Assembly: GCF_003334385.1 (NCBI RefSeq)
Contig: NZ_QOWN01000168.1
Direction: 5' to 3' (one strand)
Length of the DNA: 547 nt
Source of the DNA: Escherichia coli
GTDB taxonomy: Bacteria > Pseudomonadota > Gammaproteobacteria > Enterobacterales > Enterobacteriaceae
Positions 1 through 547 of this stretch are shown here, in pieces. The position numbers were made by a program, and so were the translations under genes. Position 1 is the first letter of the stretch; the number at the start of each line of letters is the position of its first letter. The notes beneath the pieces are model-generated. The model worked only from the letters and a program-made list of their open reading frames with translations. It was not told where the DNA came from and did not search any database.

Positions 1-24
1 GTAAGCGTACAGCCTGAACCGTCT
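1..24 (+). repeat. Putative left terminal inverted repeat (IRL) of the IS66-family element; the inner boundary is approximate
   Basis: Seen in sequence: 5'-GTAAGCGTACAGCCTGAACCGTCT at the very start of the window. Established knowledge: IS66-family IRs begin 5'-GTAAGCG. The length cannot be fixed without the right end for comparison. Confidence 0.45.
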
Positions 25-71
25 GGTCAGAATCTGACGAATTAGACAAAGTGGTGTCCACCAAATAAGTA

Positions 72-473
72 GTGGGAACCAAAGTGTCAGATATGCAGAA
101 AAATGTGACTCCCGGCAGGCGAAAAGGCTGCCCTAATTATCCTCCCGAATTTAAACAGCAGCTCGTTGCTGCCTCCTGTGAACCCGGGATATCCATCTCA
201 AAACTTGCTCTTGAAAATGGCATTAACGCCAATCTGTTGTTCAAATGGCGACAACAATGGCGCGAGGGAAAGCTGCTATTACCTTCTTCAGAGAGCCCCC
301 AGCTACTTCCTGTGACTCTCGATGCAGCTGCCGAACAGCCAGAATCGCTCGCAGAGGACCCGGAAACCCTCAGTATCAGCTGTGAGGTAACGTTCCGGCA
401 CGGGACGCTCCGCTTCAATGGCAATGTCAGCAAAAAGCTCCTGACTCTGCTGATACAGGAACTGAAGCGATGA
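72..473 (+). CDS. tnpA: IS66-family accessory protein TnpA (orf1), a small predicted HTH DNA-binding protein; 133 aa from GTG72, with in-frame alternative starts at GTG84 and ATG93 (127 aa)
   Basis: Seen in sequence: intact ORF ending at TGA 471-473. Residues ~40-60 (nt ~189-251, [22 protein letters not shown]) have a helix-turn-helix-like pattern, followed by an acidic Pro/Ser/Glu-rich linker and a C-terminal leucine-rich helix ([13 protein letters not shown]). Position immediately upstream of, and overlapping, the tnpB-like ORF fits IS66 orf1. No strong Shine-Dalgarno precedes any candidate start, so the start is uncertain. Confidence 0.85.
457..460 (+). promoter_or_regulatory. Shine-Dalgarno-like AGGA for tnpB, embedded in the 3' end of tnpA
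   Basis: Seen in sequence: AGGA at 457-460, 9 nt upstream of ATG 470. Consistent with translational coupling or reinitiation at the ATGA junction. Confidence 0.4.
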
Positions 474-547
474 TCCCGTTACCTTCCGGGACCAAAATTT
501 GGCTGGTTGCCGGTATCACCGATATGAGAAATGGCTTCAACGGCCTG
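470..547 (+). CDS. tnpB: IS66-family accessory protein TnpB (orf2), N-terminal 26 codons only; 3' end truncated by the window edge
   Basis: Seen in sequence: ATG 470-472 overlaps the tnpA stop TGA 471-473 (ATGA). Translation [26 protein letters not shown] runs open to the end of the window. An AGGA Shine-Dalgarno at 457-460 sits 9 nt upstream of the ATG. The N-terminal motif matches IS66 orf2 proteins as recalled. It is absent from the ORF track only because no stop codon falls inside the window. Confidence 0.8.

Follow-up and report, generated by a model that had tools for sequence, protein, structure and literature searches.

Domain organization of the accessory protein TnpA at the left end of an ISEc8-type insertion sequence in Escherichia coli

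What does the small first protein of an IS66-family insertion sequence contribute to its element, and which of its parts are conserved enough to carry that contribution? The question is raised by a 547-nucleotide stretch of Escherichia coli DNA, referred to here as the window, in which a preliminary description based on the letters alone had read positions 189-473 as encoding a small regulatory or accessory protein with a DNA-binding motif, a disordered linker, and a leucine-rich C-terminus. ISEc8 and its relatives rank among the most abundant insertion sequences of E. coli, Klebsiella, and their plasmids. A literature search turned up neither structure nor biochemistry for any IS66 protein, no study of the mechanism of TnpA, and no direct evidence of DNA binding by TnpA; the only IS66 interaction data that it found were on beta-clamp-binding motifs (PMC3971601). 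The ISEc8 protein itself is already known and annotated, and its layout adds nothing beyond the existing annotation; the value of the present analysis lies in a verified description with three corrections, which concern the boundary of the helix-turn-helix (HTH), the acidity of the linker together with an overlooked LLPV motif, and a beta-beta-alpha module in place of a lone helix. The protein is TnpA of an ISEc8-type element, and we consider it probable that it works as two folded modules on a flexible tether, a DNA-binding HTH and a C-terminal module for protein contact.

The window covers the left end of an ISEc8-type insertion sequence of the IS66 family. It is matched by 4315 records in 3465 of the 5426 complete E. 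coli genomes, and the best matches, 99.8% identical, carry the annotation "IS66-like element accessory protein TnpA" with "IS66 family ... TnpB" after it; a search of the E. coli and plasmid collections returned no record 100% identical to the window. The window opens with the left terminal inverted repeat (IRL), passes through a stretch that is untranslated or regulatory and then through the complete tnpA gene, and closes 26 codons into tnpB (Table 1). The full element was taken from a 99.8%-identical chromosomal copy, locus L001, where the IRL pairs with the right end as a 22-nt inverted repeat that is 82% complementary (3501-3522 / 5919-5940; element of 2440 bp). In that element, tnpA is the first gene of a tnpA-tnpB-tnpC array, with TnpB recognized as PF05717 and TnpC as DDE_Tnp_IS66, within inverted repeats of the GTAAGCG type; this tnpABC organization of IS66 elements has been described (PMC6778807). 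Of the 19 related left ends that were scanned, 15 carry GTAAGCG at an equal distance 5' of tnpA, and the order tnpA-tnpB-tnpC is kept across the related loci, along with the overlap of start and stop codons. A simple promoter scan found no sigma-70-like promoter in the window. At L001, the gene after tnpB bears the annotation "IS66-like element ISEc8 family transposase" and is frameshifted; this tnpC (4367-5903) is annotated as a pseudogene, so that copy of the element is probably non-autonomous.

Table 1. Features of the window with their coordinates; all lie on the + strand, and residues are numbered from ATG 93.
Feature	Position	Strand	Details
Left terminal inverted repeat (IRL) of the ISEc8-type insertion sequence	1-22	+	GTAAGCGTACAGCCTGAACCGT; window position 1 is the first IRL base
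Subterminal inverted repeat	53-80	+	Arms GGTGTCCAC (53-61) and GTGGGAACC (72-80); A/T-rich 10-nt spacer
tnpA coding sequence (RefSeq)	93-473	+	126 aa, WP_001171554, ATG 93; gene clusters of 126, 129, and 133 aa
HTH_Tnp_1 DNA-binding domain	120-269	+	Arm 120-143; helix 1, 144-176; helix 2, 195-218; helix 3 (recognition helix), 228-263
Flexible linker	270-374	+	Residues 60-94; Pro/Ser/Glu/Ala-rich; net charge -6; block pLDDT 54-66
Conserved LLPV motif within the linker	303-314	+	Residues 71-74
Predicted beta-beta-alpha module	375-467	+	Hairpin E95-101/E104-110 (375-422); helix 114-125 (432-467); AF2 block pLDDT 86-89
Start of tnpB (PF05717)	470-547	+	ATG 470-472 overlaps tnpA TGA 471-473; gene runs off the window

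The encoded protein is certainly the IS66-family accessory protein TnpA of the ISEc8 type, and every defining feature that was tested was found. The curated model NF047595 (IS66_ISRel24_TnpA) matches with 97 bits against a cut-off of 74, aligning residues 21-131 of the 133-aa form with model positions 3-113 of 113. The TnpA represented by WP_001171554 and NF047595 has the same gene order, terminal repeats, and ATGA overlap with tnpB, and the window differs from it by one nucleotide. That difference is at position 432, where the window has A and the common E. coli and plasmid copies have G, and it replaces E114 by K114 (VSKKLL vs VSEKLL) at the N-terminal end of the C-terminal helix, leaving the protein one amino acid from the common E. 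coli ISEc8 TnpA; residue 114 is variable across the TnpA family. The earlier observation is confirmed and its interpretation partly supported: the assignment to a small DNA-binding regulatory or accessory protein holds for the accessory identity, on the model score and the gene context, and its DNA-binding part is expected from homology, as discussed below.

The + strand open reading frame 72-473 contains all three peptides quoted in the preliminary description, which numbered residues from GTG 72; numbers counted from ATG 93, as used here, run 7 lower. Nucleotide 189 falls in I33 (I40 from GTG 72), and nucleotide 473 closes the TGA stop codon. The start codon of tnpA is ambiguous, as GTG 72 (133 aa), GTG 84 (129 aa), and ATG 93 (126 aa) are all used by public gene calls. 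GTG 72 is positionally homologous to the annotated starts of four distant homologs (loci L093, L096, L082, and L085), and GTG 84 has an SD-like GGGAA five bases upstream, at the same spacing as for the ATG of loci L086 and L089. No SD lies near ATG 93, the RefSeq start.

The N-terminal part of TnpA contains the PF01527 (HTH_Tnp_1) domain. Upstream of helix 1 (residues 18-28) lies a basic arm with the conserved pattern RKGxPNYP (R10-P17), followed by E19-F-K21, and the AF2 model places helices 2 and 3 at residues 35-42 and 46-57 with a pLDDT of 91-95. The segment that had been proposed as an HTH, at about residues 40-64 in the numbering from GTG 72, matches precisely helices 2 and 3 of this model with the turn between them, but helix 1 and the basic arm were omitted from it; a feature bounded at 189-473 cuts off the first third of the domain, which begins about 70 nt upstream of 189. 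Within the domain, W52 is invariant in the family alignment, and the net charge of the HTH region is only +3 in ISEc8 compared with a family median of +7, a point against the two-module reading given above. The three-helix fold resembles DNA-binding domains of the CENP-B/Brinker/Tc3/IstA type at the level of fold only (2-19% identity), the fold-level matches including the DNA-binding domains of Tn3 resolvase, IstA, and Tc3 transposase, and a Foldseek search with the TnpA HTH returned matches of the same kind that were without significance. In none of the CENP-B/Brinker/Tc3/IstA-type domains are the LLPV motif and the C-terminal beta-beta-alpha module present. Neither the protein nor the family profiles retrieved a solved relative when compared by sequence with the PDB, the best match being 2jn6 (E = 0.22). 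In a copy of a 91%-identical relative on a Pluralibacter plasmid (L094, 1501-1839), TnpA lacks 13 residues through an in-frame deletion that takes out helix 1 together with the beginning of helix 2 (…PEF/NISKLA…), and this TnpA copy is probably defective.

IS3-family OrfA and IS2 InsA have a homologous HTH_Tnp_1 (PF01527) in common with ISEc8 TnpA, and like it they are encoded by a small first ORF near the left end. They act as regulators and also make up the N-terminal part of the OrfAB transposase. The OrfA-type HTH of IS3 and IS2 binds the ends of its element. Because the HTH of TnpA is homologous to it, binding to ISEc8 DNA is to be expected, and the three-helix domain with its basic arm most likely binds DNA within its own element, either at the ends or in the left subterminal region. 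The likeness to OrfA is nevertheless partial, and TnpA lies outside the IS3 family, since it has no leucine zipper, enters no frameshift fusion, and scores below the curated cut-offs. OrfA has a multi-heptad leucine zipper, whereas the corresponding part of TnpA is a predicted 12-residue helix on a beta-hairpin; OrfA is joined to the DDE protein OrfB by a programmed -1 frameshift, whereas the TGA of ISEc8 tnpA overlaps the ATG of tnpB; and the downstream gene of ISEc8 encodes an unrelated 115-aa TnpB (PF05717), with the DDE domain in a separate third gene, unlike in the IS3 family. The model of the IS2 repressor TnpA (PRK09413) gives E = 1.1e-6 and 29.1 bits against a cut-off of 229, and the transpos_IS3 model gives E = 2.2e-4 and 20.6 bits against a cut-off of 160.

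A candidate site for such a protein is the subterminal inverted repeat, which sits between the IRL and tnpA, overlapping the start of that gene, in a set of 13 diverged IS66-family left ends (window 53-80; L086, 127-152; L089, 219-243; L091, 721-746; and L088, L082, L096, L092, L093, L097, L084, L090, and L085). Its consensus is GTTCCCAC-N8-11-GTGGGAAC with an 11-bp stem, the copy in L086 reads CAAAGTGGTTCCCAC-N9-GTGGGAACC, and the arms reach 15-20 bp in some other elements. The repeat of the window is shorter and imperfect (9 nt with one mismatch and one G-T), and its right arm opens with GTG 72 and includes the SD-like GGGAA, so that both fall within it. Across the 13 left ends, 88% of the stem cells are paired, compared with 37-56% in controls that shift the partner by 1-3 columns. 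Both members have changed in five of the pairs, and a covariation score as high as the one observed arises in 10 of 500 shuffles. The repeat was looked for and not found at the right end of the element. It could serve as the operator of a dimeric HTH protein, for which TnpA is the obvious candidate, or it could fold into a hairpin in read-through mRNA and so hide the start, and the counts of 14 G-U cells and 9 A-C cells in the stem do not settle which of the two it is. The homologs with upstream starts share an N-terminal peptide, (V/M)GT(K/I/T)(L/V)D(S/T), that coincides with the right arm; it was set aside as a protein feature, as conservation of the repeat arm at the level of DNA or RNA explains the peptide at least as well.

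Both IS2 InsA and IS1 InsA repress the expression of their own elements. It is possible, if rather unlikely, that TnpA too is mainly an autoregulator, which as a dimer formed through its C-terminal module would occupy the repeat, over its own translation start and probably the promoter, and repress tnpABC. That 13 diverged elements have the conserved repeat at their left end only, where it covers the tnpA start, fits such a role, as do the similarity of the HTH to the IS2 repressor model (E = 1.1e-6, below the cut-off) and the two-fold symmetry of the site, which suits a dimeric HTH protein. The ISEc8 repeat is, however, short and imperfect, and it could equally be an RNA hairpin masking the start codon or SD in read-through transcripts. 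Furthermore, mutations in each of tnpA, tnpB, and tnpC of IS679 reportedly abolished transposition, and a need for tnpA in transposition is unlike what a pure repressor would show.

In the preferred reading of TnpA as two modules on a tether, the linker is the tether. Across 44 homologous sequences, the linker measures 31-51 aa and consists to 57-77% of P, S, T, A, G, E, D, and Q, and its columns in the family alignment have high entropy and many gaps. The 31-aa stretch that had been described as a Pro/Ser/Glu-rich, probably disordered, acidic linker, at about residues 70-100 from GTG 72, does belong to it and contains 5 P, 5 S, 5 E, and 2 D, with no K or R. Disorder and variability hold family-wide, as the low pLDDT and the range of lengths indicate, but the acidity is specific to the ISEc8 element, which lies at the acidic extreme of a family whose linkers span net charges of -6 to +4 (median -2). 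What went unnoticed in this stretch is LLPV, a strongly conserved motif that surpasses every other feature outside the HTH in conservation, with L at 84%, L at 89%, P at 93%, and V at 89% in the 44 homologs (33-69% identity). In the AF2 model of TnpA alone, LLPV is coil. The possibility that QLLPV is a beta-clamp-binding motif was dropped, as a study that tested IS66 peptides located such motifs in TnpB and TnpC, not in TnpA (PMC3971601).

The C-terminus had been described as a leucine-rich amphipathic segment that could mediate dimerization or contact with TnpB or TnpC. A helix is indeed predicted there, at residues 114-125 (12 residues, about three turns and fewer than two heptads), and it has one conserved hydrophobic face formed by L117, [L/V]120, [I/L]121, and L124 in the family alignment; the conserved beta-hairpin that always precedes it had been skipped. 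The family pattern of the whole region is IEIxxxxAxVRxxGxVDxxxLRxVLxxL. As a single sequence, the helix is only moderately amphipathic, with a hydrophobic moment of 0.52-0.53, a value equaled in about 8% of shuffles. Because the helix has only 12 residues and always follows the conserved hairpin, the C-terminal element is modeled as a beta-beta-alpha module of about 32 residues, not a stand-alone zipper. A leucine-zipper-type coiled coil that dimerizes TnpA on its own, as the zipper of IS3-family OrfA does, would account for the leucine-rich sequence LLTLLIQEL, the conserved hydrophobic positions 117, 120, 121, and 124, and the moderate moment of 0.53, but it is very improbable, as these positions form a single i, i+3, i+4, i+7 set on a helix of under two heptads, the hairpin and the helix make up one module, the moment is matched by that share of shuffles, and the leucine-zipper domain of the family (PF13007, LZ_Tnp_IS66) sits in TnpC.

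The open reading frame 72-473 is a real gene, as indicated by its thousands of near-identical annotated copies, the 2222 TnpA homologs at E<=0.001 among 50%-identity cluster representatives, and its matches to Pfam and NCBIfam models. The notion that the three-part layout arose by chance in an ORF without function can be dismissed outright in view of these homologs, the domain-wise conservation with its invariant W52, the conserved tnpA-tnpB-tnpC synteny with its start/stop overlap, and the matches to curated models. Wholly inside tnpA lies an antisense ORF (137-433, minus strand, 98 aa, TTG start), which we treat as a mechanical ORF within a conserved sense gene, with no sign of expression.

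One candidate partner of the C-terminal part of TnpA is TnpB, the product of the adjoining gene. The sequence ATGA at 470-473 of the window contains both the tnpA stop and the tnpB start, and each of the 19 related loci examined (12 contig regions and 7 plasmid regions) shows an overlap of this kind, as ATGA, GTGA, or TTGA. According to a passage in PMC3469429 that cites Han et al. 2001, the three proteins of IS66 elements are made through translational coupling, and the overlap is consistent with such coupling, by which tnpA and tnpB would give both proteins together. TnpB shows much stronger conservation than TnpA. Where the TnpA of a pair has 35-60% identity to that of ISEc8, its TnpB has 57-87%, and 13 TnpB sequences agree at 36 of the 115 positions (window, 470-547; L001, 3970-4317). 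Viral contigs offered only three identity groups of tnpA-tnpB pairs (99%, 91%, and 57%), and since these were too few, 17 pairs were built from plasmids and metagenomic contigs. A TnpA-(GGS)10-TnpB fusion was modeled with AF2 on an alignment of 17 paired rows and 71 unpaired ones; the result was weak (pTM 0.47), its mean pLDDT falling from 71 to 60 over five models that agreed poorly with one another. In this weak model, the HTH is unchanged, and the C-terminal module loses confidence, its blocks having a pLDDT of 77/80/68, compared with 89/86/88 in TnpA alone. The segment LLPVTL became a beta-strand (E71-76) with somewhat higher confidence. The model is not counted as evidence for contact between TnpA and TnpB. 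The TnpB part gave a weak, non-significant Foldseek match to a putative restriction-endonuclease-domain protein (9y1l, E = 0.16, prob 0.77), and no solved TnpB relative was found in the PDB by sequence search.

A small beta-beta-alpha unit together with a short conserved motif on a floppy tether is typical of interaction modules. As a module of about 32 residues is too small for stability alone, it most likely acts by protein-protein contact, that is, by self-association and/or by docking to TnpB or to the DDE transposase TnpC. The tether of 31-51 residues carries LLPV, and together LLPV and the C-terminal module may have an adaptor role. A more specific proposal, which is tentative and which we regard as doubtful, is that the LLPV strand and the beta-beta-alpha module dock the highly conserved TnpB and, through it, TnpC, and that the left-end repeat over the tnpA start is the site bound by TnpA. 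Were this so, it would provide the first mechanistic account of why three proteins are needed and of how the left and right ends are discriminated in IS66. For mutants and constructs, the domain map offers the HTH at residues 10-59, LLPV at 71-74, and the beta-beta-alpha module at 95-126.

The same plan extends to the long-form IS66 TnpA (NF038385, IS66_access_TnpA; about 190-225 aa, e.g., ISCro1), which has the same HTH, LLPV, linker, and beta-beta-alpha core. NF038385 aligns to residues 7-117 of ISEc8 TnpA with 88.6 bits, under its cut-off of 150, and the long form has about 90-100 additional N-terminal residues that are missing in ISEc8 TnpA. Long TnpA proteins of the ISCro1 type are encoded at L095, 1207-1884 (225 aa), and at L100, 1213-1863 (216 aa).
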